Notes: generated by a model not told the origin, from the letters alone. Shown: positions 6,576-25,950, counted from the first letter of the stretch. The stretch: DNA of 27,054 nt from Deltaproteobacteria bacterium (GCA_021810985.1 JAJZQA010000001.1:1-27054); one strand, 5' to 3'. Program-made: numbers and translations.

Positions 6576-7114
6576 TGCGATTTACCATTAATCTGGCAAC
6601 CAGAACAATTCTTGATCAGCGGCGGATCGACCGCGCCTGTCTGGTCGCGGTCGTTGTGTTGGCGTTCCTGCTGGCGGCGAATATACTGCTGTTTTCCTGG
6701 AATTTTGGAAAGCTGCGGCGTCTCGACGCGGAAACCAGCGAGATGAAGAAACAGTTGACACGGCCTCTACCGAAGATTCCCGAAAAAGAGCAAAACCTGA
6801 TAGTGGCGGACATAACTTTTTACAACGAGATCATCAAACGCAAGACATACGGCTGGCTTGGTTTCCTGGAAAAGCTGGAAGCAGCTACGCCGAATGGCAT
6901 CTCGCTCACCCTCCTCTCGCCAAACAAGGAAAAAGGCAGCCTGTCTCTCGAAGGTTGGGCACGCAATTTCAAGGCGATCGAAGAGTATTTGACACTGCTG
7001 GAGGACTCGGAAAATTTTTATGACGTTCTCCTGCTGTCTCATGAAAAAGAAGAATTATGGGAGCAGGCCAAGGGTGTCAGGTTTTCCCTTTCCTGCCGGG
7101 TGAGAGAGCAATGA
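6575..7114 (+). CDS. pilN: PilN-like protein
   Basis: MRFTINLA start, single TM, coiled coil, then WLGFLEKLEAATPNGISLTLL...LSLEGWARNFKAIEEYLTLLE, a PilN-type ferredoxin-like fold signature. Confidence 0.75.
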   Translation: MRFTINLATRTILDQRRIDRACLVAVVVLAFLLAANILLFSWNFGKLRRLDAETSEMKKQLTRPLPKIPEKEQNLIVADITFYNEIIKRKTYGWLGFLEKLEAATPNGISLTLLSPNKEKGSLSLEGWARNFKAIEEYLTLLEDSENFYDVLLLSHEKEELWEQAKGVRFSLSCRVREQ

Positions 7115-7656
7115 GACCGTCTCTAAAGGCATTATATGAACGAAAAAAGCCTTGGCTGCTGGTGATCGTGTTGTTGCTGCTCCTCAACATCAGCGCTATC
7201 GTTGTTCTACTGTTCTTCCAGCAGCCGCTGCTCAAGCAGAAGAAAGAGCTCGTGACGGAGCAACGTCAAGGCCTCGCTGCGCTGGAACGCGGGGATGCAA
7301 ACACCCTGTATCGAAAAGGTAAGGCCGATATGGAAAAATTGCAGGGGATGATTCCGCTCAAACGGCAATTTGCCCCACTCCTGGCGGATATCATGGCTGA
7401 TGCCGCGGAATGCCATGTTTCCAGTGACGCACTTACCTATAAACCGGAATATCTCAGTCAAAAGAAGATGCTGGTCTACCATGTTTCACTCTCGGTGAGC
7501 GGGCGATACGCGGATATTCGCTGTTATCTCTACAAAATGCAGACCAGGAAAGAGCTCGTGGTTATTGATTCCGTGATGCTGAAAAGCGAGGATCCCTACG
7601 TGGAAAAGGTCTCCATGGATCTCAAGTTGACGACCTATCTGAGGGACGGCGCATGA
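7111..7656 (+). CDS. pilO: PilO-like (GspM-like) protein
   Basis: ATGA overlap at 7111-7114. Single TM plus coiled coil; LSVSGRYADIRCYLYKMQTRKELVVIDSV matches the PilO pattern. Confidence 0.72.
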   Translation: MRPSLKALYERKKPWLLVIVLLLLLNISAIVVLLFFQQPLLKQKKELVTEQRQGLAALERGDANTLYRKGKADMEKLQGMIPLKRQFAPLLADIMADAAECHVSSDALTYKPEYLSQKKMLVYHVSLSVSGRYADIRCYLYKMQTRKELVVIDSVMLKSEDPYVEKVSMDLKLTTYLRDGA

Positions 7657-8282
7657 ACAGGCAGCGTCTGTTACTGATGATTCTGGTGCCAATACTGATT
7701 GCCACCTCACTCTGGAGCTATTATTCCTTTCCGCGGCAAAAAACCGTGGCCAAGCTAAAATATTCGCCGGGGTCCCGGGCGGTTGCCACCCGGGAGCGCT
7801 TGAAAGCGGCCGGGCCAGGCGTGAAACCAATGGACAGCCGCGTCCTGCGGCTCGATCTTCTGGAAAACCGCCCGGAATTCGCCGGCTACCAGCGGGATAT
7901 CTTCAGCCCGCTGTTTGTCGACCGGGAAACGATGCTGGAGCGGCAAGCCGCGGCAGCAGCGGCGGCGGCCGCCGCGGAGGCGGCGCGCAGGGCTCGCCTG
8001 GCGGGTCCGCCGCAGCCGGTCAAGCCTCTTCCCGTGCCGACCGGGGTGCAGACTGAGCTGGCGGCCTTCAAGCTGCACGGCTTTCTGAAAAAAGATGGGA
8101 AAAAAATCGTATTTCTGGCTAAGGGCCAGGAAATAACCCCGGTCAAGGAGGGAACTACCTTTGCCGGCCGCTATGTCGCGACGTCCATTACCGATCAGGT
8201 CATTATTCTGAAAGTAACCGGTACCGGTGAGGAGATAATAATCCCTTTGATAGAAAACGAGCCGCTGAGAGTTATGCGGTAA
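7653..8282 (+). CDS. Protein in the PilP/GspC position of the secretion operon
   Basis: ATGA overlap. N-terminal TM, RDIFSP motif, Ala/Pro linker, and C-terminal FKLHGFLKKDGKKIVFL...PVKEGTTFAGRYVATSITDQVIIL resembling the PilP/GspC-HR beta domain. Confidence 0.65.
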   Translation: MNRQRLLLMILVPILIATSLWSYYSFPRQKTVAKLKYSPGSRAVATRERLKAAGPGVKPMDSRVLRLDLLENRPEFAGYQRDIFSPLFVDRETMLERQAAAAAAAAAAEAARRARLAGPPQPVKPLPVPTGVQTELAAFKLHGFLKKDGKKIVFLAKGQEITPVKEGTTFAGRYVATSITDQVIILKVTGTGEEIIIPLIENEPLRVMR

Positions 8283-8330
8283 CAGTCGAACCCGGTCCTC
8301 TCAGGGAACCGGCATCCGAGGAGTCGACGA

Positions 8331-10781
8331 ATGCGTTCACTTATGTATCTGCTCTTAGCAGGTTGTGTCACCGCCACCCTGATCGGCTGTGCCGCGGGGC
8401 GGTCCTTCAACGCCGGGCAGGGTCTGGAAGACCAGGGCAAGTACGAAGAGGCCATGCTCAGTTATGCGGATGCCTTTCGTGCTGATCCCGAGGTCGTAGA
8501 ATACCGGGCACGCTTTCTCACCGCACGCGACCGGGCGGCGGAAATTCGCTATGCGAAGGGTCTGGAAGAATTCAGGGCCGGTGACTATCCTGCTGCTTTG
8601 AAGGATTTCCAGGTCGCCTATGTGCTCGACCCCAGCAAAGAGATCTACCGGCAGAAGGTCGATGCCACAATGCGGAAAAGGGATGCGCTAGAGGCGTATA
8701 ATGAAGGGCTGGCGTTCGAGAAAGACAACAAGCCGAAATACGCGAAACTTGCCTACGAGAAAGCTCTTGATCTGGATCCGGAAGAGCCGGAATACAAACA
8801 GGCCAGGGCCCGGGTGCGTGGGCAGCTCGACTCCAGGATGGCCGGGTATGAATTGCAGCTCTCCTCGCTGAAACCCTTTGCCTTCAAATTCAACGGCGCC
8901 GGTCTCAAGGGAGTTTTCCGGATTCTGACTCAGCTTTCCGGCATCAATTTCATCTTTGACGAAGCGGTCAAGGACACTCCGGTTACCATCAATCTGGATC
9001 GGACGAATTTCCGGCAGGTGCTGGATCTGCTGAGCACCATGCACAAACTCGGCAGTACGGTCCTCAATGAAAAGACCGTGCTGATCTTTCCCAAGACGGC
9101 CGATAAGGTCAAACAGTACGAGAATATGGAATTGCACACCTTCCATCTCAATTACATGGACGCGAAAAAGGGCATCAACCTGATTCGCAGCATGTTGCCG
9201 GCCCGCAAGGTCTACGTCAATGAAGAAACCAACTCCATCGTCGTACGGGACAATAGTGATACCGTAGCGGTGATAGAGCGGTTGCTGGATGCCAATGACG
9301 TACCGGATGCGGAGGTGCTGCTGGATGTTGAAGTCATTGAGCTGAACGACAAGGACACCAAGAATGTCGGGCTGCTGTTGAGCCGTTATGGCGTCGATCT
9401 CGGTGCCTTTAATCTGAGCAGCGGCAAGTTGCTGGCCGACACGCTGGTCAATGCCCAAACGACCGGAAGCACCACGACCACGGACGCGAGCATTTCCAAT
9501 CTGATCAATGCCTTCAACTGGAACGGCTTCGGCGGATTCGTGACGGTGCCGAATGCCACCTATAATTTCGGTAAAACGTTTGCGAAGGGAGAGGTCCTCT
9601 CCAATCCGAAAATCCGGGTGAAAAACAAGGAAAAGGCCAAGTTCACGGTCGGCACCCGGGTGCCGATCACCACCACCACGACCAATGGGACGATCGGCGG
9701 TTTCAGCGTGAATGTCCAGTATGTGGATGTGGGGGTAAAGCTCAACGCCGAACCATTGATTCAGCTCAACAACACGATCGACATCAAGCTGAGTCTGGAA
9801 GTCAGTTCCATCGTACAGAAGGAAACGCTGGCCGACAAGACAACTACCGTTGTCACCATCGGCACTCGCAACCTGGAAACCGTGCTGAGCCTGAAAGATG
9901 GTGAAACGAGCGTCATTGGCGGTCTCATATCCCGGACCAATACCGACAGCCAGAATAAGATCTTCCTGCTGGGAGACATTCCCGTCATCGGGCCGTTTAT
10001 CTCCGGAAACAGCAATAGCAAGGAAAAGACCGAAATAGTGCTTGCCATCACACCCCATCTGATGCGAGGCCTGATAGCACCTCCGGCCAATGCCACGTCA
10101 TTCATGTCCGGAAAGGAAGATGACCCCTCCCTGGCCCTGTTCCCGCCAGCTTCCGATGAAGAGCCGGGGCAAGCTGCAGCGGTACCGCGATTCGCTGCTC
10201 CTCCGGCTGTTTCCCAACCGGCTGCGCCGCCGCCCGCTTTCGCGCCGCAGGCTACTTCAACCTCGCTTCCCGGTCAACCTGGGGAAACCCCCGCCGCTAC
10301 GGCTCAGGCTGTTGCTCCTGTGGCGATCCCGGTATCTCCCGGGACAGTTTCGAATCAGGGTTCTTCCTTGCAAAGTGGTTCGCTGATCATTGCGACCCCG
10401 CCAGTGAGTAAAGTGGGTGAGACGTTCACCCTGGAAATTCGTGCCGAGAATGTCGGCGCTGTTATGTCGGCGCCATTTTCTTTGACCTTCGATCCGAATT
10501 ATGTCGAACCTGAAGCTGTATCACCAGGGACATTTCTGCAAAAACAGGGCTTGCAAACGAATTTCTCCAGTTCCACTGACCCAAGTGGCGCTATTAATGT
10601 CGATGTATCACTTCCCGATGGAGCTACCGTCGCAGGCGGAAGCGGTATTCTGGCAACCGCTGTATTCCGTGCCAAAAAGCCAGGGGTCGCGGCGTTCGGA
10701 TTCCGGGATGTTGCGTTCAAATCGGATACAGGAGCTAATGTCCCGGTAATTCCGGTGGCAGCCTCCTTGAATATTCAGTAA
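8331..10781 (+). CDS. gspD: Secretin (GspD/PilQ family) lipoprotein with N-terminal TPR region and C-terminal cohesin-like domain
   Basis: Lipobox LIGC; TPR-like helices; N-domains (FRILTQLSGINFIFD); secretin core (LSNPKIRVKNKEKAKFTVGTRVP, YVDVGVKLNAEP, LKDGETSVIGGL, KIFLLGDIPVIGPF, KTEIVLAITPHL); Pro/Ala linker; cohesin-like VGETFTLEIRAENV...FSLTFDPNYV...GSGILATAVFRAKKPG. Confidence 0.93.
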   Translation: MRSLMYLLLAGCVTATLIGCAAGRSFNAGQGLEDQGKYEEAMLSYADAFRADPEVVEYRARFLTARDRAAEIRYAKGLEEFRAGDYPAALKDFQVAYVLDPSKEIYRQKVDATMRKRDALEAYNEGLAFEKDNKPKYAKLAYEKALDLDPEEPEYKQARARVRGQLDSRMAGYELQLSSLKPFAFKFNGAGLKGVFRILTQLSGINFIFDEAVKDTPVTINLDRTNFRQVLDLLSTMHKLGSTVLNEKTVLIFPKTADKVKQYENMELHTFHLNYMDAKKGINLIRSMLPARKVYVNEETNSIVVRDNSDTVAVIERLLDANDVPDAEVLLDVEVIELNDKDTKNVGLLLSRYGVDLGAFNLSSGKLLADTLVNAQTTGSTTTTDASISNLINAFNWNGFGGFVTVPNATYNFGKTFAKGEVLSNPKIRVKNKEKAKFTVGTRVPITTTTTNGTIGGFSVNVQYVDVGVKLNAEPLIQLNNTIDIKLSLEVSSIVQKETLADKTTTVVTIGTRNLETVLSLKDGETSVIGGLISRTNTDSQNKIFLLGDIPVIGPFISGNSNSKEKTEIVLAITPHLMRGLIAPPANATSFMSGKEDDPSLALFPPASDEEPGQAAAVPRFAAPPAVSQPAAPPPAFAPQATSTSLPGQPGETPAATAQAVAPVAIPVSPGTVSNQGSSLQSGSLIIATPPVSKVGETFTLEIRAENVGAVMSAPFSLTFDPNYVEPEAVSPGTFLQKQGLQTNFSSSTDPSGAINVDVSLPDGATVAGGSGILATAVFRAKKPGVAAFGFRDVAFKSDTGANVPVIPVAASLNIQ

Positions 10782-10784
10782 AAC

Positions 10785-11279
10785 ATGATGAATTTTCTTT
10801 GGAAACGAAAGGGCGTTACCCTCCTTGAGTTGATCGTGGCAATCAGTATCCTGACCATTCTGGTTGCGGGCATCGTGCCGTTGACGCGCATGACCGCAAA
10901 GAGAACCCGGGAAATTGAATTGCGGAGCAACCTGCGCATTATCCGGACCGCTCTCGATGATTTCAAGAAGAGCTACGACAAGGCAGTAAATGATAAGAAA
11001 ATTCCCGTCACGGAGAACAAATCCGGTTATCCCGAGACATTGAATCAGTTGGTCGAGGGGTATGATTTTGGCGGTCTCTATGCGTTTAAGAAGAAGTTTC
11101 TGCGCAAGGTGCCCATTGACCCGATGAACCCGCCGGAACCGGGCGAAGAACCCGAATGGGGAATGCGGTCCTACAGTGATCAGCCTGATAGCAACTCCTG
11201 GGGCGGGGAAGATGTTTATGATGTATATTCACTCAGTGAAGGAACGGGGCTTGACGGTACAAAATACGAGGAATGGTGA
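10785..11279 (+). CDS. Type II secretion pseudopilin (PulG-like)
   Basis: Class III signal KRKG|VTLLELIVAISILTILVAG with Glu5; FLRKVPIDPM motif. Confidence 0.88.
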   Translation: MMNFLWKRKGVTLLELIVAISILTILVAGIVPLTRMTAKRTREIELRSNLRIIRTALDDFKKSYDKAVNDKKIPVTENKSGYPETLNQLVEGYDFGGLYAFKKKFLRKVPIDPMNPPEPGEEPEWGMRSYSDQPDSNSWGGEDVYDVYSLSEGTGLDGTKYEEW

Positions 11280-11298
11280 TAACGTGCGGAGTGGGTTG

Positions 11299-11727
11299 AT
11301 GGTGCGGGGATCTCGGGGCTTTACCTTAATCGAGTTGATGATTGTGCTGTCAATTATCGGCATTCTGTCATCGATTGCCGTGCCGAATTATCAACGCTGG
11401 ATAATCCGGGCGAAAGAGGCCGCACTGAGTGACAGCCTGAATAATTTCCGCAAGACCATCGACGAGTATTATGCCGACCAGGGCAAGTATCCGGATGAAC
11501 TGAACGAACTCGTTGCCAGAGGATACCTGCGGGGGCTGCCGATCGATCCTTTTACCAAAAAATCTGATACCTGGATAACGGTCGCGCCTCCCGAGGGGAA
11601 CACCATCCCGTTAGATTCCGGCACCCAGCCGGTAACCGCCCCGGTGAAGGAACCGGGCAACGTCTATGATGTCCATAGCGGGTCCGACCTGGTCGGCAGC
11701 AATGGCGTGCCCTATAACGAGTGGTGA
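11299..11727 (+). CDS. gspG: Type II secretion major pseudopilin (GspG/OxpG-like)
   Basis: RG|FTLIELMIVLSIIGILSSIAVPNY...YYADQGKYPDELNELVARGYLRGLPIDPFT. Start set at ATG 11299 (GGAG at 11288-11291); GTG 11284 is an alternative. Confidence 0.9.
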   Translation: MVRGSRGFTLIELMIVLSIIGILSSIAVPNYQRWIIRAKEAALSDSLNNFRKTIDEYYADQGKYPDELNELVARGYLRGLPIDPFTKKSDTWITVAPPEGNTIPLDSGTQPVTAPVKEPGNVYDVHSGSDLVGSNGVPYNEW

Positions 11728-11733
11728 AGCAGG

Positions 11734-11770
11734 AGCGATTGGCGAATAGCTAATCGCTGTACTTTTATTC
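11734..11770 (+). terminator. Intrinsic terminator between the convergent pseudopilin and ATPase genes
   Basis: AGCGATTGGC-gaata-GCTAATCGCT, a 10-bp stem with one G-U pair, followed by gtacttttatt. Confidence 0.6.
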
Positions 11771-13534
11771 CACGAAAGTCACCCGGTTGATCTCCCTGAG
11801 AGTTGTTTCTCCGTTCAGAAGTTTTTCTATTGCCGATTCCCGCAGAAATACCACACCAGATTCACGGGCCAATTGTTTGAGCTCGGTTGTGGACGATTTT
11901 CTGATCATGAGATCGCGAATTTCGTCCGTCATATCGAGAAGCTCGACGATGGCCGTCCTGCCGTGGTAGCCGGTGCCGTTGCAGGCTTCACAGCCGTGCG
12001 CTTCAAAAAGGGTCCGCTCCCGCGCGCGCTCGGGAGCAATGCCGGAATCAAGGAGAACCGCGTCCGGATAGCGGGTCGAAATCCGGCACTGTGGACAGAG
12101 CCGTCGTACCAGCCGTTGCGCCATGACACAGTTCAGGCTGGAAACGAAATTGTAGGGGTCGATGTTCATGTGGAAAAAACGGCCGATCACGTCAAAGACA
12201 TTATTGGCGTGAACGGTGGTAAAAACCAGGTGCCCCGTCAATGCCGACTGGACGGCGATCTGGGCGGTTTCTGAGTCACGGATTTCCCCGACCATGATTT
12301 TGTCCGGGTCGTGACGCAGGATTGAGCGCAATCCCCGGGCAAAGGTCAGGCCTTTCTTTTCATTCACCGGGATCTGAAGAATACCGCGCAGCATGTATTC
12401 AACCGGGTCCTCGATGGTGATGATTTTTTCCTCTCCGGTGTGAATTTCGGTCAAGGCGGCATAGAGTGTTGTCGATTTACCGCTGCCGGTGGGCCCGGTC
12501 ACGAGAATCATGCCGTACGGTTCGTGAATCTTCTTGCGAAACCGGACTATTTCCCGGTCGCTGATGCCGAGACTTTCAAGGGTCAAGCCTTTCAGATTGC
12601 TGGCGATCGCTTCTTTATCGAGGATCCTGATTACCGCATCCTCGCCCATAACGCTGGGCATGATGGAGATACGGAAATCGATCGACTTTTCGCCCAAGCG
12701 AATTTTAAAACGGCCGTCCTGGGGGACGCGGCGTTCGGAGATATCCAGTTCGCTCATGACCTTGAGACGCGAGATGATCGGGGCCTGAAACTGGATGCCC
12801 ATCGGATCGCTGGCTTTGTAAAGCACGCCATCGATACGGTATTTGATGACCACGCCTTCCTGGCTGGTTTCGATATGAATATCGCTGGCACGGCGGTTAA
12901 GGGCATCCAGAATCGTGGTGTTGAGAAGTTTGATGATGGGGCTGGTATCCTCGGAAATGCCCTCCACCGTCAGGATTTCCTCGCCGTGATCGTTTTCTTT
13001 AACCAGCTGCAGCATGAAGTCTTCCGAAACTTCCCGCAAGACCCTGCTGGTCGCCGTGCCGGCTTTGAAAAAATCCGCTATTGCTGATTCGGTTGCCACG
13101 CGGACCTTGATACGGCGATCAACCAGGAGTTCCAGTTCGTCCAGTTTGAGTACGTCGGTGGGGTCGGACGTGGCTACAACCAGGGACTCGGAGTCCATCT
13201 CCAGCGGCACGAAGCGGAACCGGTGAATGAAATCGGCCGGTAGTAACGCAAGCAGCTCTTCGTCAATTTTATACTGACTCAGATCGGCGTATTCGAGGCC
13301 GAATTGCTTCGCCAGCGCCTGCGCAAGATTCTCTTCACTGATCAGGCCTTCAAGGATGCAGATTTTACCGAAACGTTGATCCTCCAGGGCGAGTCTTTCC
13401 AGTATGAGAGGCAGATATTCGGCAGCCAGTGAGCCTTGCTCGATGAGAATAGTTCCGATGTCTTTGTTCTGGTAACCCATTGATATCTCACGATCTTTCA
13501 GCTTGGGAATTAGGTGTGGAAGTTGTTGCTCCAT
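11765..13534 (-). CDS. gspE: GspE/PilB-family secretion ATPase with MshEN-like N-terminal domain
   Basis: Walker A GPTGSGKS, Asp box TIEDPVE, LRHDPDKIMVGEIRD, His box GHLVFTTVH, and Zn tetra-Cys CPQC...CEAC. The start overlaps the upstream stop (TAATG); ATG 13480 is an alternative. Confidence 0.95.
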   Translation of the reverse strand: MEQQLPHLIPKLKDREISMGYQNKDIGTILIEQGSLAAEYLPLILERLALEDQRFGKICILEGLISEENLAQALAKQFGLEYADLSQYKIDEELLALLPADFIHRFRFVPLEMDSESLVVATSDPTDVLKLDELELLVDRRIKVRVATESAIADFFKAGTATSRVLREVSEDFMLQLVKENDHGEEILTVEGISEDTSPIIKLLNTTILDALNRRASDIHIETSQEGVVIKYRIDGVLYKASDPMGIQFQAPIISRLKVMSELDISERRVPQDGRFKIRLGEKSIDFRISIMPSVMGEDAVIRILDKEAIASNLKGLTLESLGISDREIVRFRKKIHEPYGMILVTGPTGSGKSTTLYAALTEIHTGEEKIITIEDPVEYMLRGILQIPVNEKKGLTFARGLRSILRHDPDKIMVGEIRDSETAQIAVQSALTGHLVFTTVHANNVFDVIGRFFHMNIDPYNFVSSLNCVMAQRLVRRLCPQCRISTRYPDAVLLDSGIAPERARERTLFEAHGCEACNGTGYHGRTAIVELLDMTDEIRDLMIRKSSTTELKQLARESGVVFLRESAIEKLLNGETTLREINRVTFVE

Positions 13535-15132: not shown

Positions 15133-16056
15133 TCAGGGTGCTGACACCTCTACCACCGAACTGCTTTCACCGTTGGGGTTGATCACCTGCACGGTAAAAC
15201 TTTTCTCAGCCGAATCGTATGGGTGCCGTTGGTAGATAATCCTGTTGCAGTCCACGTAGATAACCTTTTCCCTTTCGACCGGATTCACCGCGGAGGCCGT
15301 CATGGATTTCCCTTCCACAACGACTTTTGAATTGCTCTGCAAATTCCGGCCTTCGATGATCAGGTCATAGTAGTTTACGTAATTCTCGCCTTGGATTATC
15401 CCGGTAATTTCGGGTTTTGAATCAATAAATAGCGCAAGAGCTGATGACAGGGTTCCGCCCGGATTCTTGACCTGTACGGTATGGAGACCGCTGGCAATCC
15501 GGGGTATGTGAATGGAAATGGTTTCAGCTGACTCGAAGCGGCTTTTGATTACCGCACCATCAAAGAGCACCTGCGAACTCGGCAGAAAATTATCCCCGCT
15601 GATCTGGACTACCCGTTCATTATCCGGGGTGCAGGCATAAATTTTGTCCGGCGTCAGGGAAGTGGCGGACGGTGTCCGGGGGGTCACGGAAAATCTGTAC
15701 CCCTTGCTGACTGTACCGTCTTCGCGTCGCACGAAGAGACCATAGAGGCCCGGCGCCAGATCCGGGATCTCAAAGCTGAGTTGTTTCGGTCCTTGAATGG
15801 TGGTTTGGGCTTCCAGCGGGCCAATCAAGACGTGGGTTCCAGCGCTGAATCCTGATCCGAAAAGCGTCACGCTCATTCCCGGCTCGGCCTGGGAAGGAAT
15901 GATGCTGAGAATCGTGACGGGAACGGTCCGTTCCTCGCGGTTTCCCGGCAGTTGTCCTTCCGCCGGGCCAGATAAGGTACTCAATAAAAATAACACCGCC
16001 AGTATTATCAGCGGAATAATCCCCAACTTGTCAGGTTTTCTCATTATTGCGTACAT
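15133..16056 (-). CDS. Exported IPT/TIG-repeat (Ig-like) protein
   Basis: GGAG RBS; signal or TM segment; three repeats of the type (P)xIxSIxP...G..VTLxGxxF (VTILSIIPSQAEPGMSVTLFGSGF; PSATSLTPD...VQISGDNF; PEITGIIQG...LIIEGRNL). Confidence 0.8.
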   Translation of the reverse strand: MYAIMRKPDKLGIIPLIILAVLFLLSTLSGPAEGQLPGNREERTVPVTILSIIPSQAEPGMSVTLFGSGFSAGTHVLIGPLEAQTTIQGPKQLSFEIPDLAPGLYGLFVRREDGTVSKGYRFSVTPRTPSATSLTPDKIYACTPDNERVVQISGDNFLPSSQVLFDGAVIKSRFESAETISIHIPRIASGLHTVQVKNPGGTLSSALALFIDSKPEITGIIQGENYVNYYDLIIEGRNLQSNSKVVVEGKSMTASAVNPVEREKVIYVDCNRIIYQRHPYDSAEKSFTVQVINPNGESSSVVEVSAP

Positions 16057-16197: not shown

Positions 16198-17871
16198 TTA
16201 ATACCGGTAACTCAGATCAACCTTGCCAATTTGATTGGTGCGGTTGATTCCTCCTGCCAAGTTCACATTATGGATCCGCTCCCAGCCATACATCAGCTGC
16301 AGGTCGATATCACCATGAATCGGGAGTTGCCAGAAAACGCGCAGCGCATTTTTGCGCTCGACGGCCTGAAGGGCGCCATTCGGGTCATAAGCGCCTGCCG
16401 GGTTTACGGTAACCCTGCCGAGGTTTCCTCTCTCGGTGTGAAGGTACTCCAGTGCCAGGTTGTTTCTGACCGAAAACCAGTGGCTGGCCCGAACAAAAAA
16501 CTCCTCAGCCGCCCCGCCTTGGGATGGCCCGATATTCATTCCCCGATACAGGTAACCCCCGGGAAAGGTGCCGCTGGTGGAAAGAATCGCATTGCCAAGA
16601 TAGTATTCCAACCGGAGGTCGTTTTTGCCGTCGGCCGTGAGGCAGGGGATAAAGATGCCGGCAACATAGCTTTCGACGATCGGCCAGAAGGCCGCGGTGT
16701 CCTCCCCGGAAAACTCGCCGTAGATTTCCGTATTTCTCAGAAAAGGCAGTCTTACCCGAAGATCCAGTCCGGCAACGCTGTTCGAGTTGTCACTGCTGGT
16801 GCCGCCAATGAGCCCGCGAAGCCAGTCCCCGAGAGAGTTGTTTACTCCCGGTCCGCCCTGCTGGCGACCCAGGTTGATGCCGAATTCGACGGTGTCATGC
16901 GGTTTAATGGCCAGCTTTGCACCAAGGAAGTACGGTTGTCTGGTTTTTCCGTCCGTCACGGTGGACTCGAAGCGGGAAAACATCAGGGAGTACTTTACCC
17001 AGCCCAGGTAGCGCTTCAGCCAGCCGATATCAAGCGGTTCCGGACTGGAGAGTTTCACCAGATCAAAATTTCTCGCATTATCTGAGAGGGTTATCGCGGT
17101 TCGAGACCCGGGCCCGAACCAGTTAGAATCCCTGCCGATCTCCAGTTCAAGGCCGCCGCCGCCGACTTTCAGATACCCCTTGTTCAACCTGCCTTGCGCG
17201 ACTCGATCCTTGAATGAATAGCTGAGATGTGGCTCGATGAGGGCAGCCGCGAATGAACCCAGATAGGCCTCGCCGCTGAAACGATACTCGACATTACTGC
17301 CCTTCCGGTAGCGGATTCCCTCATTATTCCCCAATAAAGGAGTCCCTTCCGTCCCATGCTGCCTGACGGGAGAGGGGTAGGGATTATCCGGACGCAATCC
17401 TGAGCCGATGCCGAATACGCCATCGCCACCCGGGTCGTGGACCGGCCGCTCATAGCTCCGGGGGACTCCATCGAGGTAGATATAGCGAATCCTTGCTGTG
17501 GAAAACGGATTGTAGTCAAAACGCGGAGCCTTTTCCTGCTCATTGCGCAGGGATACTTCGCGAGGGAGCAGATCGCGTACCCTGGTCAGGAGGCTGGAGG
17601 CAAAGTTGCGCGCGGCCTCGTTGTCGATGCCGGTCAGGTTGCTTTCCGCCTCAAGGGCCAGTCTGGCGGCTTCCGATTTTGAAAAAGGCCGAATTCCCTG
17701 GATGTTCGATGTAATAATGCCAAATCCGGCCAGTTTTTCCAGATATAGGTAGAGAGGACTATCGAGAGGGATGTTGTTCGATGCGAGTGCGAAGGCCCGG
17801 TTTGCGGGAAGGGAGAGGCAGGCGATGAACAGGATGAGGCCGCAAAAAGTGACTGCCGGGCGAGAAAACAT
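16198..17871 (-). CDS. wzi: Capsule assembly Wzi-family outer-membrane protein
   Basis: Signal peptide; LELEIGRDSNWFGPGSRTAITLSDNARNFDLVKLSS, YFLGAKLAIKP and TEIYGEFSGED match the Wzi pattern; C-terminal aromatic YRY. Confidence 0.82.
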   Translation of the reverse strand: MFSRPAVTFCGLILFIACLSLPANRAFALASNNIPLDSPLYLYLEKLAGFGIITSNIQGIRPFSKSEAARLALEAESNLTGIDNEAARNFASSLLTRVRDLLPREVSLRNEQEKAPRFDYNPFSTARIRYIYLDGVPRSYERPVHDPGGDGVFGIGSGLRPDNPYPSPVRQHGTEGTPLLGNNEGIRYRKGSNVEYRFSGEAYLGSFAAALIEPHLSYSFKDRVAQGRLNKGYLKVGGGGLELEIGRDSNWFGPGSRTAITLSDNARNFDLVKLSSPEPLDIGWLKRYLGWVKYSLMFSRFESTVTDGKTRQPYFLGAKLAIKPHDTVEFGINLGRQQGGPGVNNSLGDWLRGLIGGTSSDNSNSVAGLDLRVRLPFLRNTEIYGEFSGEDTAAFWPIVESYVAGIFIPCLTADGKNDLRLEYYLGNAILSTSGTFPGGYLYRGMNIGPSQGGAAEEFFVRASHWFSVRNNLALEYLHTERGNLGRVTVNPAGAYDPNGALQAVERKNALRVFWQLPIHGDIDLQLMYGWERIHNVNLAGGINRTNQIGKVDLSYRY

Positions 17872-17922: not shown

Positions 17923-19863
17923 TTATGAAACCGGCTGTCGTAGTGGGATAATTCTTGCGGGTTGTGCACCATCCTTCATTTTTATGCTTTGGCCGGCGGA
18001 AATGGCGTGTTGGTGCCGCTCAGCCGGGTACTGGTGCTGTTGGGATGGTGTGAACTCCATGACGAGGCGACGAAGTGCAATGACCATTCCTTGAATATCA
18101 TGCGTTTCAGCCAGGTGGAACAACTGGGCAAGTTCGGCTGAAAAGCTTTCCGAATCCGCGGCGGCAGAAGCCGCAATCTTGATCTTCCTGTGGGAGGTCT
18201 CCCTGACCCCTTCCTCTTTTGTCAGAAGTTCTTCAAAGAGTTTTTCCCCCGGGCGCAGACCGGTAAATACAATATCAATATCCTTATTGGGAATCAACCC
18301 AGAAAGCCTGATCAAATGTTCGGCAAGATCAAGGATCCGGACCGGGTCTCCCATCTCGAGCAGGAATATTTCTCCTCCCTGGCCAAGGCAGCCTGCCTGC
18401 AGCACCAATTGCGCAGCCTCGGGAATGGTCATGAAATATCTGATAACCTCGGGATCGGTAACGGTTACCGGCCCGCCTTTTCTGATTTGTTCCAGGAAAA
18501 TGGGAATAACGCTGCCGCTGCTTCCGAGCACATTTCCGAAGCGGACCGTAGTGAATTTTGTGGAGCTTTTCTTGGCTAATGACTGGATATAGATTTCCGC
18601 GACGCGTTTTGAGGCACCCATGATATTGGTCGGATTTACCGCTTTGTCGGATGAGATCATGACGAAACTGGAGACACCTGCCTTGTCGGCTGCGTCGGCC
18701 AGAACTTTGGTTCCCCTGCAGTTGTTCAATACCGCTTGGGTGGGATTGTGTTCGAGCAAGGAAACGTGTTTGTAGGCTGCCGCATGGAAGACCACGTCAG
18801 GTTTATAGTGGGAGAATACCGCATCGATTTTGTCTCGGCTCCTTATATCCCCGAGAACAGGAATGATAGTCACTTTGGGATGGCGTGCCGCCAGTTCCCG
18901 GTCGATATAAAAGAGCGGGGTCTCGGCCTTGTCAAGCAGGATCAGTTTTCTGGGATCGAACTCAACGATCTGGCGGCAAATTTCACTGCCGATACTGCCG
19001 GCCGCACCGGAAACCAGGACAGTTTTGCCCTGCAGGTAGTGCCGGATTCCGGATTTATCCAGTGTGACGGGCTCTCTGCCGAGAAGGTCCTCCAGTTCCA
19101 CATCCCGAATCTGGTTCGCCAATACCTTGCAGTTGATGATGTCGCTGATTGCCGGAAGGATTTTGACGCGGGCGCCGGTCTTATTGCAGTTCTCGATCAT
19201 TTTTCGCAAAGCAAATCCCCGCACCGACGGCACGGCCACGATCAGATCTTCGATGCCATGCTTGCGCACAAGCTCCTGCAATTGGTCCTGTTTGCCCAGC
19301 ACCGGTACAGTGCCAAGAATCATGCCCCTTTTACTCTCGTCATCGTCGACGAATCCGACAATGTTGTATTCAGGTGCCTGCTGTCTGCCGATTTCCGTCA
19401 GGAGCAGGCGACCCGCATCGCCTGCTCCCAGGATCAGGGTTCTGTGTCCGGTATTTCTGGTGGAAGTGAAGATGTGTTCCCGGTACAGCCGCCAGGCCAG
19501 GCGGCTCGATGCTGTCAGAAAAAGGAGGATCAGCCAGTCGATGAGGATGATTGAACGGGGGAAATGATCAAAATACTGAAAAAAAGTAAGAAAAAACGAG
19601 GAGCCAAGGGATGCGACGCTAACCACTTTGAAAATTTCGACGGCGTCCCGTACTGAAGCGTAGCGCCATAACTTTCGGTAAAAGCCCATGGAAAGAAACG
19701 CCAGGGGTTTAATAACCGCGACTATACAAAGTCCTTTCCAGAAGATCGCACCGTACGCGGGTGGGATGAAAAAATCGAAGCGGAAAAGAAAGGAGAGAGT
19801 GTATGCCAAGACGATTAAGGCTGTGTCAATTATAATCAGCATCAATACTTTCTGGAACGACAC
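17923..19863 (-). CDS. Polysaccharide biosynthesis nucleoside-diphosphate sugar dehydratase (CapD/WbpM/PglF family)
   Basis: GTG 19863 with AGGAGG RBS (the track start at 20151 runs through promoter DNA). Four N-terminal TMs, ILGAGDAG, VEDLLGR-like ELEDLLGREP, GAAGSIGSE, HAAAYKHV, ISSDKAVNPTNIMGASK, RFGNVLGSSGSV, GLRPGEKLFEEL. Confidence 0.93.
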   Translation of the reverse strand: MSFQKVLMLIIIDTALIVLAYTLSFLFRFDFFIPPAYGAIFWKGLCIVAVIKPLAFLSMGFYRKLWRYASVRDAVEIFKVVSVASLGSSFFLTFFQYFDHFPRSIILIDWLILLFLTASSRLAWRLYREHIFTSTRNTGHRTLILGAGDAGRLLLTEIGRQQAPEYNIVGFVDDDESKRGMILGTVPVLGKQDQLQELVRKHGIEDLIVAVPSVRGFALRKMIENCNKTGARVKILPAISDIINCKVLANQIRDVELEDLLGREPVTLDKSGIRHYLQGKTVLVSGAAGSIGSEICRQIVEFDPRKLILLDKAETPLFYIDRELAARHPKVTIIPVLGDIRSRDKIDAVFSHYKPDVVFHAAAYKHVSLLEHNPTQAVLNNCRGTKVLADAADKAGVSSFVMISSDKAVNPTNIMGASKRVAEIYIQSLAKKSSTKFTTVRFGNVLGSSGSVIPIFLEQIRKGGPVTVTDPEVIRYFMTIPEAAQLVLQAGCLGQGGEIFLLEMGDPVRILDLAEHLIRLSGLIPNKDIDIVFTGLRPGEKLFEELLTKEEGVRETSHRKIKIAASAAADSESFSAELAQLFHLAETHDIQGMVIALRRLVMEFTPSQQHQYPAERHQHAISAGQSIKMKDGAQPARIIPLRQPVS

Positions 19864-20064
19864 GGCTCCTCCTTGGCGGTTGGGCAGGGTAGAAAACAGT
19901 ATGGAATCTGCTGAAAACCTATTTGTTTCGCAAATTTGAATGACAGGGTAACGATATTGTCTTGAAATAGTAACATTATATAAACAAATTACGAGAACTT
20001 TTTTTCCGGGCTTTCGTGGGCAAATGGCCCTAAAGGAAATTTGTCGATAAATTTTTCCCTGTCC

Positions 20065-20093
20065 TCGACAGTATTGAGTTTTTAGCATATAAT
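20065..20093 (+). promoter_or_regulatory. Sigma70 promoter for the wza-wzz-beta-helix block
   Basis: TCGACA (20065-20070), 17 nt, TATAAT (20088-20093), about 100 nt before TTG 20193, which has AGGAG at 20181-20185. Confidence 0.7.
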
Positions 20094-20192
20094 ATTTTTT
20101 CCAATTGACAATGCCTTTATCAATATATTCAGCACTCACATTTATTTGCATACCGGTAAGTAATTGAAAACTGACACCACAGGAGACCGCCC

Positions 20193-22781
20193 TTGAAAAA
20201 AGGAAGTGTGATTTTCATCCTTGCTTTTTGCTGCATGTACCTGGTTGTTTCAAAAGATTGGCGTGTATTTGCTGAAGTTCTGCCCGACTCACCCCCGACC
20301 CGTACGGTGGTGCCTGCCTATTCCCCCCCGAACAAATCCGCAGTTTTTCAGTCCCTCTCTTCAGCGAGATCCTCCCAAAGGGATTCATCCGGATTAGCCG
20401 CAACGAGAAAGCTTCCCGGGTCGCTGAAGGAAAAAATCCGTTCCGACGAAGAAAGACAGTCTAATTTGACCGACGAAGGATCGGTGCCAAAAGGAACGGA
20501 TGATATTTCGCCCATCGAGCAGTCTCTCCTGACTGAAGAAACCACCAAAGACAACTCCCGTCCCCTGCCATACCAGGTAAAGCGCCTGAACCAGTTCGGC
20601 TACAATTTTTTTAAGCCAAGCGAGGGGGGCTTTTCTCCGCTCACCGATATTCCGGTCGGGGCCGAGTATGTTGTTGGCCCGGGAGACAAGCTGATCATCA
20701 ATCTTTGGGGGAGTGTCGAGGGAACCTATGAGTTGGATGTTAATCGCAGTGGGGAAATTTTCCTTCCGCGAGTCGGGAGCGTCAAGGTCTGGGGTGTTTC
20801 TTTCGGTGAACTGCCGAATCTTCTGAAAAGCAATCTGGCGAAAATCTATAAGGATTTCGGTCTGAACGTGACGATGGGCAAACTCCGGGTCGTCAAAGTC
20901 TATGTGGTGGGTGAGGTCCGGGCACCCGGCGATTATAACCTGAGTTCCCTTTCGACGCTGATAAATGCCCTCAGTGCCGCGGGCGGGCCGCTGAAAACCG
21001 GATCCCTTCGCTCGATCCAGATCAAACGGGCCGGGAAGGTGGTGGACACGGTCGACCTGTACGACTTTTTTCTCTCCGGTGACAAAAGCAGAGATATCCG
21101 CCTGCAGTCCGGTGATACGATATTCGTCCCCGTGATCGGCCGGGTGGCGGGAATTTCCGGCAACGTGAAGAGACCCGCCATCTATGAACTCAAAAACGAG
21201 GAGAATCTTGCCGACCTGATCGGACTTGCGGAAGGATTTCTTCCGACCGGCTACCTGCAGCGGGTCCAGCTTTCCCGGGTGCAAGCCCACGAGAAGAGGG
21301 TGGTCTCCGATTTTAGCCTGGACCCGAAGGTTGACGGGAAGACGCTGGAAGAGTTGATGAAGGCGATAAAAATCCAGGATATGGATCTGGTGAAGATCTT
21401 TCCCATCGACAAAACCCTGCGTGACCATGTCAGACTTTCCGGGTATGTGCTCCGGCCGGGAGACTATGCCTTGAAGCCCGGCATGCGGGTGAGCGATCTT
21501 CTGCCGCAGGACAACCTTCTTCCCGAGTATTACCGGGAGGCTGCCGAAATTACACGACTCTATCCCCCGGATTATCACCCGGAAAAACTGTTCATCAATC
21601 TTGCCAAGGCTTTAGCCGGAGAGCCGAATTATAATCTGGAATTGCAGGAATTCGACGAGCTCAAGGTATTTTCCCGCTGGGAGATGGAAGAAATGCCCAG
21701 GGTGTGGGTGAATGGCGAAGTGCAAAATCCCGGAGAATATCGACTCTTTGAAAATATGACGGTACGCGATCTCCTCCTGGCGGCGGGGAACCTGAAGATA
21801 ACCGCCTATCGCAAGTTTGCCGAATTGAGCCGCATCAAGCAGACCGGCGAAACGGTCGCGTCATACCCCCTTACCATCAATCTTGAAGAGGCGCTGAAAG
21901 GGAGCGAAAAGGACAATGTAACCCTCCTTCCTTTTGATGAGTTGAGCGTCAGAAAGATCCCCAACTGGGTCGAGGAGTTGGACCGGCATGTAACGCTCAG
22001 CGGAGAGGTGAAATTCCCCGGTACCTATCCCATCTACAAGGGGGAAAAGCTGAGTTCCATAATCGAAAGGGCGGGCGGCTTTACTGAAAGTGCCTACCTG
22101 CAAGGCGCAAAATTTACCCGGGAATCGGTGCGGGAGACCCAGCAGAAGCGGATGGACGAGGTAATAGCACGGACTGAACAGGAGATATTGAAAAAACAGG
22201 GAGAGCTGGCTGCGCTGGCAGCGTCCAAGGAGGAGCTGGAAGCAACCAAGGCTTCACTGGAAGGATTGCAGAAAGGTCTGAATAAACTCAAGTCGGCAAA
22301 AGCGGAAGGTCGTATGGTGCTCCAACTCGCCCAGTTGCCCGAGTTTGCGAAGAGTGAATATAATGTTGAAGTGATGGGCGGCGATACACTGCAGGTGCCG
22401 AAGACGCCGAGTGAAGTCACCGTACTGGGGCAGGTCTATAATCCCACCTCTCTTGTCTATATGCAGGGCAAAAGCGCGTCCTACTATCTGAGCAAGTCCG
22501 GGGGAGCTACGCGAGATGCGGAAGAAGATGATATGTACATCGTCAAGGCCGATGGTACGGTTGTCAGCAGGCATCAGACGTCATTAGGTTTCAACTGGAA
22601 CGACGATACCAAATCCTGGTACTTCGGCTCATTCCTTTCCACCCAAATGCAGCCGGGTGATACCCTGGTCGTGCCGCAAAAGCTGGAGCGCACCGCCTGG
22701 ATGCGGGAAATAAAGGATATTGCCTCCATCCTTGGCAATATTGCGCTTACCGCCGGGGTGATTATTGCGGCCGGGCTGTAA
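20193..22781 (+). CDS. wza: Large polysaccharide export protein with multiple SLBB repeats (Wza/KpsD-like)
   Basis: EYVVGPGDKLIINLWG Poly_export motif; repeated SLBB units (VYVVGEVRAPG, ISGNVKRPAIY, LSGYVLRPGDY, VNGEVQNPGEY, LSGEVKFPGTY, VLGQVYNP); C-terminal amphipathic helix WMREIKDIASILGNIALTAG. Confidence 0.88.
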   Translation: MKKGSVIFILAFCCMYLVVSKDWRVFAEVLPDSPPTRTVVPAYSPPNKSAVFQSLSSARSSQRDSSGLAATRKLPGSLKEKIRSDEERQSNLTDEGSVPKGTDDISPIEQSLLTEETTKDNSRPLPYQVKRLNQFGYNFFKPSEGGFSPLTDIPVGAEYVVGPGDKLIINLWGSVEGTYELDVNRSGEIFLPRVGSVKVWGVSFGELPNLLKSNLAKIYKDFGLNVTMGKLRVVKVYVVGEVRAPGDYNLSSLSTLINALSAAGGPLKTGSLRSIQIKRAGKVVDTVDLYDFFLSGDKSRDIRLQSGDTIFVPVIGRVAGISGNVKRPAIYELKNEENLADLIGLAEGFLPTGYLQRVQLSRVQAHEKRVVSDFSLDPKVDGKTLEELMKAIKIQDMDLVKIFPIDKTLRDHVRLSGYVLRPGDYALKPGMRVSDLLPQDNLLPEYYREAAEITRLYPPDYHPEKLFINLAKALAGEPNYNLELQEFDELKVFSRWEMEEMPRVWVNGEVQNPGEYRLFENMTVRDLLLAAGNLKITAYRKFAELSRIKQTGETVASYPLTINLEEALKGSEKDNVTLLPFDELSVRKIPNWVEELDRHVTLSGEVKFPGTYPIYKGEKLSSIIERAGGFTESAYLQGAKFTRESVRETQQKRMDEVIARTEQEILKKQGELAALAASKEELEATKASLEGLQKGLNKLKSAKAEGRMVLQLAQLPEFAKSEYNVEVMGGDTLQVPKTPSEVTVLGQVYNPTSLVYMQGKSASYYLSKSGGATRDAEEDDMYIVKADGTVVSRHQTSLGFNWNDDTKSWYFGSFLSTQMQPGDTLVVPQKLERTAWMREIKDIASILGNIALTAGVIIAAGL

Positions 22782-22884: not shown

Positions 22885-24120
22885 ATGCATCACACGGAAA
22901 ATTCCAACCCCGAACCTCAAGCCTTAAACTCAAGTCCCACCTCTCCCGGTTTGCTTGATTATCTGACCGTTATTTTCAAGCATCGGCGGATGATATTCCG
23001 CAACACTCTCGCCGTAGCAATCATCACAACGATTTACACTCTTTTATTGCCTAACATCTATACTGCCAAAACCCTGATTCTTCCAAATCAGGAAGACAAG
23101 GGGATGATGTCGGCCATGATGGGTCAGTTGGGCGGATTGGCGGTCCTTGCAGGAGGTGTGGGGGCTTCAATTGGTGGGCCGACTACGGCCGAACTCTATG
23201 TGAGCATGCTGAAAAGCGAGGCGGTTAAAGATCCCGTTATCGAAAAATTTGGACTCATGAAATTGTACTCTGCGAAATACCGCGTAGATGCCTACGCACT
23301 TCTCGATAAGAAAACATTGGTTTCGGCCGGGAAGAAAGACGGGATTATTTCAATTTCCGTCAGTGACAAGGACCCCAAGCTTGCAGCCGCGATGGCCAAT
23401 TCTTATGTTGAAGAACTGGCTCGCCTTGCTTTTCGCCTTAATGTTACTGGTGCTGGCCAGAATCGCACCTTCTTGGAAGATAGGCTTATAACGGCTAAAG
23501 CAGATCTTGCAAGAAGTGAGGATAATCTCAAGTCTTTTCAGGCAAAAAACAAGGCAGTCAACGTGACCGCTCAGGCAGAAGCCGCTATTAAGGGGGTTGC
23601 CGAACTGAGAGCCCAGCTTGCAGTTCAAGAGGTCCAGCTTGCGACCTACCGGCGTCAATATACCGATTCGAGTCAGGAAGTGAAAAACCTTGACACTTCA
23701 GTCAGCAATCTCAGGAGGCAAATTGCAAAACTGGAGGGTGCAGATGGAAACAGTGCCATTCCTTCCGTCGGTTCGGTACCGGCCATTGGCCAGGAATATG
23801 TAAGGCTTATGCGAGAGTTTAAGATCCAGGAGTCTCTCGTGGAGTTGCTAACTAAGCAGTATGAAATGGCGAAACTTTCAGAGGCGAAGGATATTTCCCC
23901 ATTTCAGGTAATCCAGTCGGCCAAAGTTCCCGAGAGAAAAAGTAAACCTGCGAGGTCCAAAATAGTGCTTGTTTGGACTTTTGTAGCTTTCATAACTACT
24001 GTTATTTGCACATTTTTTTTGGAAAACATCGAGAAAATGACGGATCGGAACAAGGACCTGTGGATTGAAACTAAAAAAATATTTTCATTTTGGAAGAAGT
24101 TCAAAAATCAGAACAAATAA
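22885..24120 (+). CDS. wzz: Polysaccharide chain-length determinant/co-polymerase (Wzz/GumC-like, no kinase domain)
   Basis: AGGAG RBS; GLLDYLTVIFKHRRMI, TM, LPNIYTAKTLILP, long coiled coil, FQVIQSAKVPERKSKPARSKIVL and a second TM. No Walker A kinase domain follows. Confidence 0.85.
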   Translation: MHHTENSNPEPQALNSSPTSPGLLDYLTVIFKHRRMIFRNTLAVAIITTIYTLLLPNIYTAKTLILPNQEDKGMMSAMMGQLGGLAVLAGGVGASIGGPTTAELYVSMLKSEAVKDPVIEKFGLMKLYSAKYRVDAYALLDKKTLVSAGKKDGIISISVSDKDPKLAAAMANSYVEELARLAFRLNVTGAGQNRTFLEDRLITAKADLARSEDNLKSFQAKNKAVNVTAQAEAAIKGVAELRAQLAVQEVQLATYRRQYTDSSQEVKNLDTSVSNLRRQIAKLEGADGNSAIPSVGSVPAIGQEYVRLMREFKIQESLVELLTKQYEMAKLSEAKDISPFQVIQSAKVPERKSKPARSKIVLVWTFVAFITTVICTFFLENIEKMTDRNKDLWIETKKIFSFWKKFKNQNK

Positions 24121-24156
24121 CTTTGAATTGCCGTATATTTAAAAAGAGAGATCGTT

Positions 24157-25950
24157 ATGAAAATCAATCTGGCATCTCTATGTATTCATGCAATTCTCGT
24201 TTGCTCAATTACCTTTTTAGCCCCCACAATTCCGTTCGCTGCAACTAATAACAACGTTTCAACTCTGCGTAGTTCATTAGATGCCCCGCGTAACTTTCGG
24301 GAAGGCACATCTAAAAGTGCAACCTCAACGAATTCTCCATTAATCGTTGCAAAAATCGATGCAGGTTTATTTGCCAACTTTTCAGCCGCAGTTAACGATC
24401 CAAGAACTGTCAATAAAACGATCGTTATTTCTAAATCAGAATCCGTGAGTAATTTGATTGTTCCTGCAGATAGGGGGCTTGAAATAGTACAGGGTGGAAG
24501 TTTACATGTTTCCTCCGGCAAAATCCTCACCATAAAAGGTCCATTCTCGGCCGGGCTTTATCAGGTGTTTACAGGCAGAGGTTCCGTAATAGGGTTACAT
24601 AATGCCTATCCAGAATGGTTTGGTGCTAAAGCTGACGGATTTACTGACTCTACAAATGCAATACAAGAAATAATGAACATGAACACCAGTGGTAACCATA
24701 CAGCAATCATTTTCAGCAATGGGGTTTATCTTGTCAATTCTTTGAAATTCTCGTCAACAAAAGGAAACTACGGCGAAAGCATTGTAATGCTCGGCGCTCC
24801 CGTGGCTCAGGGGATTTCAAATAGAAACGTGCAGACGCAATCCGTCCCCCGCGGAACGGTCATCAGAACCAACCAATCGTCAGGCGTCCTGCTCACCGTG
24901 ACGGGAGATGCGAGCGCCATATTAACGCCCGTACGGATCGATGATATCTGGTTCCAGGGTCCGCAGGTCAACCAGGATGGCAAAATCCTTTCCGCTACCG
25001 GTGACGGACTCGTTTTCACACGCACGACCGGCGCGGGCTGTGCCCTGAAACTAAATAATGTCGTGGTGACCGGGTTCGGCAGGGGCACCGGCGTAACGAT
25101 GCATTACGTCGAGAACAGCGTCATAAACAACTTGGTTGTCAATTACAATGGAACCGGCCTGCTGCTGCGGGACGCGACAAACGCGAACGTCTTCAACTAC
25201 CTGGAAGCCCAGGATAACTATGAGTATGGCGTTGTCATCCGGGACGGAGTGCTGGGCAATTCCTTTAACGGCGGGTTGATTCAGGGCAACAAGAAAAGCG
25301 GATTAACAATCCATTCGGGCAATGCCAATGTATTTACGGGCTGGTATTTTGAGAGCAACAACTACACCAACGCGCCGAACAGGCACGCGCTCCAGATAAA
25401 CAGCGTGGACAACCGGGCACCGGTTGACACCACCTCGTTCGTGGGATGTTATTTCAGCAGCCCGAAGGATACGATACTAATCGACGCTTCAATCTTTAAT
25501 GTTTCAGGGATTGAGTTCACGAACTGCAAACAGAAATCATCGACGCTGACGATAACCGGAACCCGTTTCAGCAGAATGAAAATTTCCGGACTGATGAATT
25601 TGATAGACCCCGGTTTTTTCGTGTCCACCGATTTCTGGAGGGATTGGACTCCAAGGGTTTCCGGTGGCGCTGGGGGTGTCGTCAAGGGGAGAGCAAGGAG
25701 AAACGGGGGCAGGATGGAGATATGGCTTCAGGCCTACGGTACGACCGTATCCGGGACAGCATTGTCGATTCCTGCTTTCGGGCACATGGCAACGTCATAC
25801 AAATACCCTCTGTTGGTGAATCGGCTGGGGGGACCGGCCGACAAGGAATATGCCTTTGTGGATGCCGCCGACGGCTTGATACATATAAAAGGCTTAGCCG
25901 CCGGTCCGGTGAATCTGCATCTCTCCGGATTCTACGAGGTATATCCGTAA
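24157..25950 (+). CDS. Secreted right-handed beta-helix protein (pectate-lyase-3/tailspike-like), putative polysaccharide depolymerase
   Basis: Signal peptide; YPEWFGAKADGFTDSTNAIQ motif; Asn/Gly/Val-rich beta-helix rungs; C-terminal beta domain starting WRDWTP. Confidence 0.75.
   Translation: MKINLASLCIHAILVCSITFLAPTIPFAATNNNVSTLRSSLDAPRNFREGTSKSATSTNSPLIVAKIDAGLFANFSAAVNDPRTVNKTIVISKSESVSNLIVPADRGLEIVQGGSLHVSSGKILTIKGPFSAGLYQVFTGRGSVIGLHNAYPEWFGAKADGFTDSTNAIQEIMNMNTSGNHTAIIFSNGVYLVNSLKFSSTKGNYGESIVMLGAPVAQGISNRNVQTQSVPRGTVIRTNQSSGVLLTVTGDASAILTPVRIDDIWFQGPQVNQDGKILSATGDGLVFTRTTGAGCALKLNNVVVTGFGRGTGVTMHYVENSVINNLVVNYNGTGLLLRDATNANVFNYLEAQDNYEYGVVIRDGVLGNSFNGGLIQGNKKSGLTIHSGNANVFTGWYFESNNYTNAPNRHALQINSVDNRAPVDTTSFVGCYFSSPKDTILIDASIFNVSGIEFTNCKQKSSTLTITGTRFSRMKISGLMNLIDPGFFVSTDFWRDWTPRVSGGAGGVVKGRARRNGGRMEIWLQAYGTTVSGTALSIPAFGHMATSYKYPLLVNRLGGPADKEYAFVDAADGLIHIKGLAAGPVNLHLSGFYEVYP

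Follow-up and report, generated by a model that had tools for sequence, protein, structure and literature searches.

Results

The DNA analysed here (the window) comprises 27,054 nucleotides from Deltaproteobacteria bacterium (GCA_021810985.1 JAJZQA010000001.1:1-27054) and is a whole 27-kb contig (C172) of a metagenome-assembled genome (MAG) that is 69% complete. Its Wzi protein is 83-85% identical to those of 'delta proteobacterium' MAGs from Microflora Danica and 62% identical to that of Geobacter hydrogenophilus, and these identities place the organism in the Geobacteraceae. Here, we describe a gene for a tailspike-like beta-helix protein that follows wza and wzz on the same strand (Table 1). 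An earlier note on this DNA had taken the gene for a domesticated phage depolymerase with a Sec signal peptide, embedded in a polysaccharide export operon. The open reading frame (ORF) at 24157-25950 runs through 597 codons with zero internal stops in the translation. It lies 36 bp behind the end of the wzz-like gene, a purine-rich AGAGAG stretch precedes its start, and the motif PEWFGAKADGFTDSTNAIQ occupies residues 152-170 of the protein (nt 24610-24666). The earlier note had given the ORF, the 36-bp gap and the motif coordinates exactly, and its sequence observations agree with the translation, the Pfam matches and the predicted model. The public gene call for the same contig (P0002; 425 aa, 24673-25950) starts at M173 and drops the signal, the linker, the N-terminal module and the GDG cap. 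Because this start removes the cap together with a module that has hundreds of homologues, the long 597-aa ORF is, judged by homology, the correct one and the public call is too short.

Table 1. Features of the window, with coordinates counted from its first nucleotide.
Feature	Position	Strand	Basis or remark
TonB-receptor, NapH-like, TonB, NosL genes	260-4201	+	
Secretion or pilus cluster: GspF, PilM, PilN, PilO, secretin, two pseudopilins, MshEN-type ATPase (minus strand)	4426-13534	+/-	
TIG-domain protein	15133-16056	-	
Wzi	16198-17871	-	
PglF-like dehydratase	17923-20151	-	
Promoter-like site TCGACA-17-TATAAT upstream of wza	20065..20093	+	Pattern scan, 11/12 matches; consensus match only
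Wza-like outer-membrane polysaccharide export protein, several SLBB domains	20193..22781	+	Pfam Poly_export, SLBB, SLBB_2; 79% identical to same-genus genome G005
Wzz/PCP-type chain-length determinant, no kinase domain	22885..24120	+	Pfam Wzz, GNVR
Low-GC tract: wzz 3' end, 36-bp spacer, codons 1-203 of beta-helix gene	23920..24766	+	GC 0.34-0.44 vs ~0.54 elsewhere in the window
Whole gene, putative exported tailspike-like beta-helix glycanase	24157..25950	+	597 aa plus stop
Sec-type hydrophobic export signal, residues 1-29	24157..24243	+	Sequence, hydrophobicity, model helix at residues 6-18; no canonical AXA site
Ser/Thr/Asn-rich disordered linker, residues 30-64	24244..24348	+	pLDDT 40-44
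N-terminal module, extra beta-helix rungs, residues 65-154	24349..24618	+	pLDDT 98; no Pfam family
PF12708-type beta-helix body, residues 155-480	24619..25596	+	Pfam, alignment A2, fold matches
C-terminal beta-sandwich 'head' with W..WTP motif, residues 490-597	25624..25947	+	
DegT-family sugar aminotransferase, convergent, cut by contig end	25952..27052	-	Pfam DegT_DnrJ_EryC1, E 7e-98

The protein was modelled as a monomer with AlphaFold from a 76-sequence alignment (mean predicted local distance difference test score, pLDDT, 79.8). The model is disordered up to residue 60, and residues 65-480 then form a single uninterrupted right-handed beta-helix with pLDDT mostly above 90, so that the right-handed parallel beta-helix body by which tailspikes are recognized is present in the prediction. 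Residues 490-597 make up a separate beta-sandwich of low confidence in the full-length model, which reaches a pLDDT of 74 when modelled by itself. At the sequence level, PF12708 (Pect-lyase_RHGA_epim) matches residues 155-350 above its gathering threshold (29.3 bits vs a cut-off of 27).

The N-terminus (MKINLASL...) has a hydrophobic core whose best 12-residue Kyte-Doolittle window scores 2.43; relatives whose signal peptide is clear reach 2.5-3.3, the phage homologues 0.6-1.1. It lacks a twin-arginine (RR) motif, and Tat export was rejected on this ground; a lipoprotein reading was rejected as well, with Cys9 and Cys16 both outside any lipobox. The sole Ala-rich site, PFA|A, carries Pro at -3, which makes cleavage uncertain, and judged by this sequence the segment may stay uncleaved as a membrane anchor. 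The Sec signal peptide proposed before thus stands in its hydrophobic core and in the missing Tat motif, but not in its cleavage site. Residues 1-64 hold just this signal and the disordered linker, and a virion- or adaptor-binding domain is absent from them.

An exhaustive search of 1.8 billion representative proteins yielded 2626 hits, 7 of them below 1e-30. Only P0009, P0003, P0004 and P0011 align along residues 155-586, that is over the body and the C-terminal head, with 35-39% identity, and P0014 does so more weakly. All five begin at the GDG cap and have no signal peptide. The close body relatives are all located on phage-like contigs: P0011 shares its 11.9-kb contig with another pectate-lyase-like protein, a P22-type portal and a terminase, the proteins encoded beside P0009 have PHROG matches among tail-fibre and virion families, and the contig of P0014 is phage-like, too. 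Of the more distant body relatives, P0024, P0019 and P0050 lie on contigs too short for classification, and P0042 adjoins a phage lysozyme. These leaderless homologues support a likeness to tailspikes in descent and not in fold alone, as the earlier note had claimed from the appearance of the protein.

Residues 204-597 had no counterpart in the 238 further genomes of the order that were searched (38 genera), tblastn against 50,697 INPHARED phage genomes gave no match, and neither IMG/VR nor the GTDB species genomes yielded a relative in pattern scans with an alignment of the window protein and five relatives (A2, six sequences). When residues 480-597 were used alone in a word-based search, the protein itself was the only hit. 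Three metagenomes of other studies (soil, freshwater sediment and one unspecified) hold pieces of the body (24841-25799) at 93-99% nucleotide identity, and nothing of the N-terminal part, wzz or degT was found in the same three. Phage contigs are the only known reservoir of the body, but with a GC content of 39-42% and only 35-39% identity to the window protein they do not point to a particular donor. Too few relatives are available to fix the direction of transfer, and the term 'domesticated' is not supported.

Foldseek placed phage tailspikes on top of the PDB matches, as the earlier note had expected. Det7 gp208 came first (5e-11), then the GVE2 ORF18 and Sf6 tailspikes, and after these AlgE4, a Klebsiella phage spike, WceF (6tgf, 2.9e-6), AlgG and RbmB. 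In a comparison of folds, AlgE-type epimerase/lyases stand at 33, phage spikes at 32, and GH28 polygalacturonases and RbmB at 30 each. As modelled, the fold of the body alone cannot separate phage from cellular enzymes. The best structural matches of the C-terminal domain are phage or viral tailspike, fibre and receptor-binding heads, again with Det7 first, in line with the earlier description of this domain as being in the style of tail fibres and tailspikes. A single-sequence search of the PDB returned noise only, a profile search of the PDB aligned the generic GDG-cap motif alone (6tgf, E 8.7e-4), and the matches in the ESM Atlas, none of which reached the trust threshold, were to generic beta-helix clusters, among them a WcaM cluster and a viral one.

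Alternatively, the protein could act as a polymer-level modifier: like AlgG or AlgE, it would then be a C5-epimerase or epimerase/lyase and would alter residues of the nascent polysaccharide in the periplasm without depolymerising it. We regard this as unlikely. The matches to this group span residues 148-520 only, at 16-20% identity, the relatives detectable by sequence are all phage-contig proteins, and the C-terminal head resembles phage spikes. AlgG and AlgE have neither the N-terminal module nor the C-terminal head, and the catalytic His/Asp (DPH-type) motif of these mannuronan C5-epimerases is not conserved in the window protein and its five relatives. Solely D160 (in the cap motif), E319 and E399 are invariant among the charged residues of A2, and no His, Lys or Arg is invariant. 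Two invariant glutamates together with the lack of an invariant His, Lys or Arg favour, as far as conservation can tell, hydrolysis over beta-elimination or epimerisation. The motifs of the body in A2 are VENS, ATNANVFNY, LIQGNK and YFESNN. They bear on a further alternative, in which the protein would have no catalytic role and, as a beta-helix lectin, adhesin or matrix cross-linker, would bind polysaccharide and leave it uncut. The VENS, ATNAN, QGNK and FESNN blocks and the two invariant glutamates are kept across the phage relatives, a pattern typical of an active groove, and we hold this alternative to be very unlikely.

The N-terminal module has a distribution of its own. The 2626 hits at E<=1e-3 (493 at <=1e-10) belong for the most part to its family (residues ~65-196). 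The module usually stands right after a signal peptide, and relatives that share it have canonical signal peptides. In related genomes, the module-bearing ORFs carry unrelated bodies. Several of the settings are polysaccharide loci, in which the module proteins carry signal peptides. A module-bearing beta-helix gene lies between wzz and a Wzx-type flippase gene, followed by methyltransferases and GT4, in G038, ahead of Wzx and GT1 in G022 (contig C39), and, in G019, after GT4 and Bac_transf and convergent to a DegT orthologue that is 72% identical to the DegT of the window. A module-bearing gene is found near GT2 genes in G045, and the metagenomic module protein P0028 adjoins Bac_transf and an epimerase. 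The module also occurs in a prophage tail: in G055 (contig C7; L046 1099-10865), next to pheT, a lambda-type tape-measure protein and a 1167-aa GpJ-like protein are directly followed by a 771-aa module beta-helix protein, in which the module stands behind an extension of ~100 aa. From its presence in a prophage tail and in polysaccharide loci it follows that the module circulates between phage tails and host loci. The metagenomic protein P0010 (874 aa), which has strong PHROG tailspike matches, contains four tandem units of GDG cap and rung module before its beta-helix body, and this suggests that the window protein has, in its module, a repeat of the helix start in truncated form.

Two further loci with the module deserve mention. 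In G026 (contig C34; L047 7842-10550) a 220-aa ORF with a weak match to a T7 tail-fibre N-terminus (E 6e-5) precedes a 672-aa module beta-helix protein whose own N-terminus is signal-peptide-like, an odd blend of phage-adaptor and export features. In the same-genus genome G011 the module-bearing beta-helix ORF is short (322-352 aa) and lies 20 kb from the wzz of that genome; this wzz orthologue (L030/L037/L038; G011:C23:151525-152847) reads as a pseudogene, with several TGA/TAA stops in the match.

The base composition of the gene is divided as well. GC content at third codon positions (GC3) is 0.335 over codons 1-203 and 0.660 over codons 204-597 (best split at nt 24766, chi2 55.8), while the remaining window has a GC3 of ~0.64. 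The low-GC tract starts within the last ~65 codons of wzz. Wzz itself is 70-90% identical to five relatives up to about residue 350 and 15-27% identical over its last ~60 residues, and synteny with G005 stops inside the wzz 3' end, at the place where Wzz identity collapses and GC drops. G005 is also low in GC over the last 60 wzz codons and 400 bp downstream. Thus, the conserved backbone of the locus ends inside wzz and not at its stop codon. The coincidence of low-GC onset, loss of Wzz identity and end of synteny makes the beta-helix gene the first gene of a variable, serotype-like block, here the strain-specific part of a Wzx/Wzy-type exopolysaccharide (EPS) or capsule locus. The front of the gene belongs compositionally to this block and the body looks host-like, and the rise of GC3 at codon 203, from 0.34 to 0.66, makes a mosaic gene probable. 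We rejected the GC step as the boundary of the module: the homology boundary lies near residue 155, the GC3 step at codon 203, and residues 155-203 still resemble the phage group in A2.

The assembly was compared with independent Logan contigs from the likely source run; the source sample is from mine drainage. These contigs end at 24449 and resume at 24667, leaving 24450-24666 uncovered, and their depth is 2.9 over 24278-24449, compared with 7.7 and 6.8 in the flanks. The dip and the hole over 24278-24666 suggest strain variants or paralogue-like repeats in the module region. They could also be read as the mark of an assembly chimera or a decaying remnant, in which the metagenome assembler would have fused an N-terminal part and a body that belong to separate genes or strains; the sharp GC3 step inside the gene and the occurrence of the body alone in other runs would fit such an origin. 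However, the step at 24766 falls within one continuous independent contig (24667-26400) and is thus not an assembly joint, and the two flanking depths are alike. The frame is open, the predicted helix is seamless (pLDDT 97-98 over residues 70-170), and in two relatives, P0014 and P0015, the module likewise precedes the body. A chimera or remnant is, all told, highly improbable.

The window ORFs were annotated with Pfam and NCBIfam. None of the 23 ORFs tested matches a phage Pfam family, in keeping with the earlier statement that phage genes are missing nearby. The + strand has no terminator-like site between wza, wzz and the beta-helix gene, and from this arrangement the three are probably transcribed together. 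The placement in a polysaccharide export operon was thus well seen, with wza, wzz and the gene on one strand at the edge of the variable part of the locus.

Discussion

We consider it fairly likely that the gene encodes an exported tailspike-type enzyme that cleaves the polysaccharide of its own producer, as WceF does. This function is the most likely one because the gene stands behind wza and wzz where the type-specific block begins, because relatives with the module recur between wzz and wzx, and because WceF offers a precedent. The protein would be built from a Sec-type signal, a flexible linker, a long right-handed beta-helix and a C-terminal beta-sandwich that resembles a fibre head. Sec export would be followed by folding in the periplasm, either free or tethered by the uncleaved signal, and the protein would probably form trimers. 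Cleavage of the own polymer, in the periplasm or at the cell surface, could then set chain length or release the polymer.

The principle of this enzyme is already known from WceF, AmsF and WcaM and, in a monomeric form, from VexL and RbmB. To our knowledge, WceF is the only characterised trimeric case among the tailspike-like enzymes of bacterial EPS loci. RbmB from Vibrio cholerae (PDB 9ozd/9ozl) and VexL from Achromobacter are reportedly monomeric beta-helix enzymes that cut the matrix or capsule polysaccharide of the producer. Both are without the C-terminal fibre-head domain and have no detectable sequence relationship to the window protein, and RbmB is titled a lyase.

WceF from Pantoea stewartii (PDB 6tgf) is an exported, trimeric, tailspike-like stewartan hydrolase encoded in an EPS cluster, its acquisition from phages has been suggested by its authors, and knock-outs of wceF lengthen the polymer according to earlier work cited there (PMC7949094). 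The idea of a tailspike-like enzyme for the own polysaccharide, put forward in the earlier note, is therefore not new (PMC7949094), although the tailspike likeness, the export signal and the operon position on which it was built do hold. Like members of the WceF family, the window gene lies inside a cluster for the synthesis and export of EPS (wza, wzz and the gene, with a convergent degT), and with WceF itself the product would share the Wzx/Wzy-type setting, the right-handed beta-helix, the tailspike-like architecture, the C-terminal beta-sandwich and, probably, export. WceF hydrolyses the EPS of its producer, and we infer the same for the window protein. In contrast, the signal is of the Tat type in WceF and of the Sec type in the window protein. 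WceF also has a P22-like head domain and a CBA120-like neck, the window protein a disordered linker and, at the N-terminus, a rung module unrelated to these. With no Pfam or NCBIfam match to WcaM, the window protein falls outside the sequence family formed by WceF and its homologues AmsF and WcaM, and the lineages differ, too (Geobacteraceae vs Erwiniaceae). On this sequence evidence the window protein was probably acquired independently of the WceF/WcaM family. The phage tailspikes that head the Foldseek list (Det7 gp208, 6f7k; Sf6 TSP, 2vbk; GVE2 ORF18, 7chu) share the beta-helix body. Unlike them, the window protein has an export signal in place of the virion-attachment domain, and its gene belongs to an EPS operon of the chromosome, where phage genes are absent from the 27 kb.

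Several points weigh against an enzyme for the own polymer. The export signal is without a canonical signal-peptidase site, the join between residues ~98 and ~170 is without confirmation from independent contigs, the candidate catalytic residues are guessed solely from conservation in six sequences, and the substrate may be a foreign polymer. The last point leads to a different role, that of an outward weapon or shield, in which a secreted depolymerase would strip the capsules of competitors or remove a phage receptor. A body that is unique among 239 genomes of the order and that recurs without its flanks in three other metagenomes, as expected for a mobile accessory module, would suit this role, and by analogy the phage relatives are receptor-destroying enzymes. 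However, the gene sits within the wza-wzz transcription unit at the start of the serotype-specific block, its module relatives between wzz and wzx elsewhere tie these proteins to the own polymer, and no dedicated secretion route is apparent. We therefore judge a weapon or shield to be improbable and prefer cleavage of the own polymer.

It is unusual that two halves of such a protein can be told apart: related genomes have the front end again, in polysaccharide loci as well as in a prophage tail, and the relatives of the body are found on phage-like contigs only. At this stage we can only speculate, and rather doubtfully, that Geobacterales keep a standard front end of signal and rung module at their polysaccharide loci, with bodies swapped by recombination with phage tailspikes, so that hosts and phages would draw on a shared pool of depolymerases that fit the local type of polysaccharide. 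Body exchange would then have left its traces in the GC3 step, in a body unique within the order, in the body-only copies in metagenomes and in the module of the G055 prophage tail. The protein adds an example from the Desulfuromonadota to the small set of tailspike-built enzymes of bacterial EPS loci. If it is active on the polymer of its producer, it would be a ready-made specific tool for studying the matrix polysaccharides of Geobacteraceae, which are important for biofilms on minerals and electrodes, and it would show how capsule types co-evolve, between host and phage, with their cleaving enzymes.

The secretin cluster near the locus had suggested export through a type II secretion system (T2SS). 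A link between the beta-helix protein and this cluster is not supported. G005 keeps the PilMNO/secretin cluster beside the locus in the same synteny without any relative of the beta-helix gene, and the secretin (8331-10781, 816 aa), with TPR repeats at its N-terminus and a cohesin-like domain at its C-terminus, reaches the curated cut-off of neither GspD nor PilQ. The cluster itself uses PilM/N/O parts together with an MshEN-type ATPase and may be a T2SS or pilus-like.
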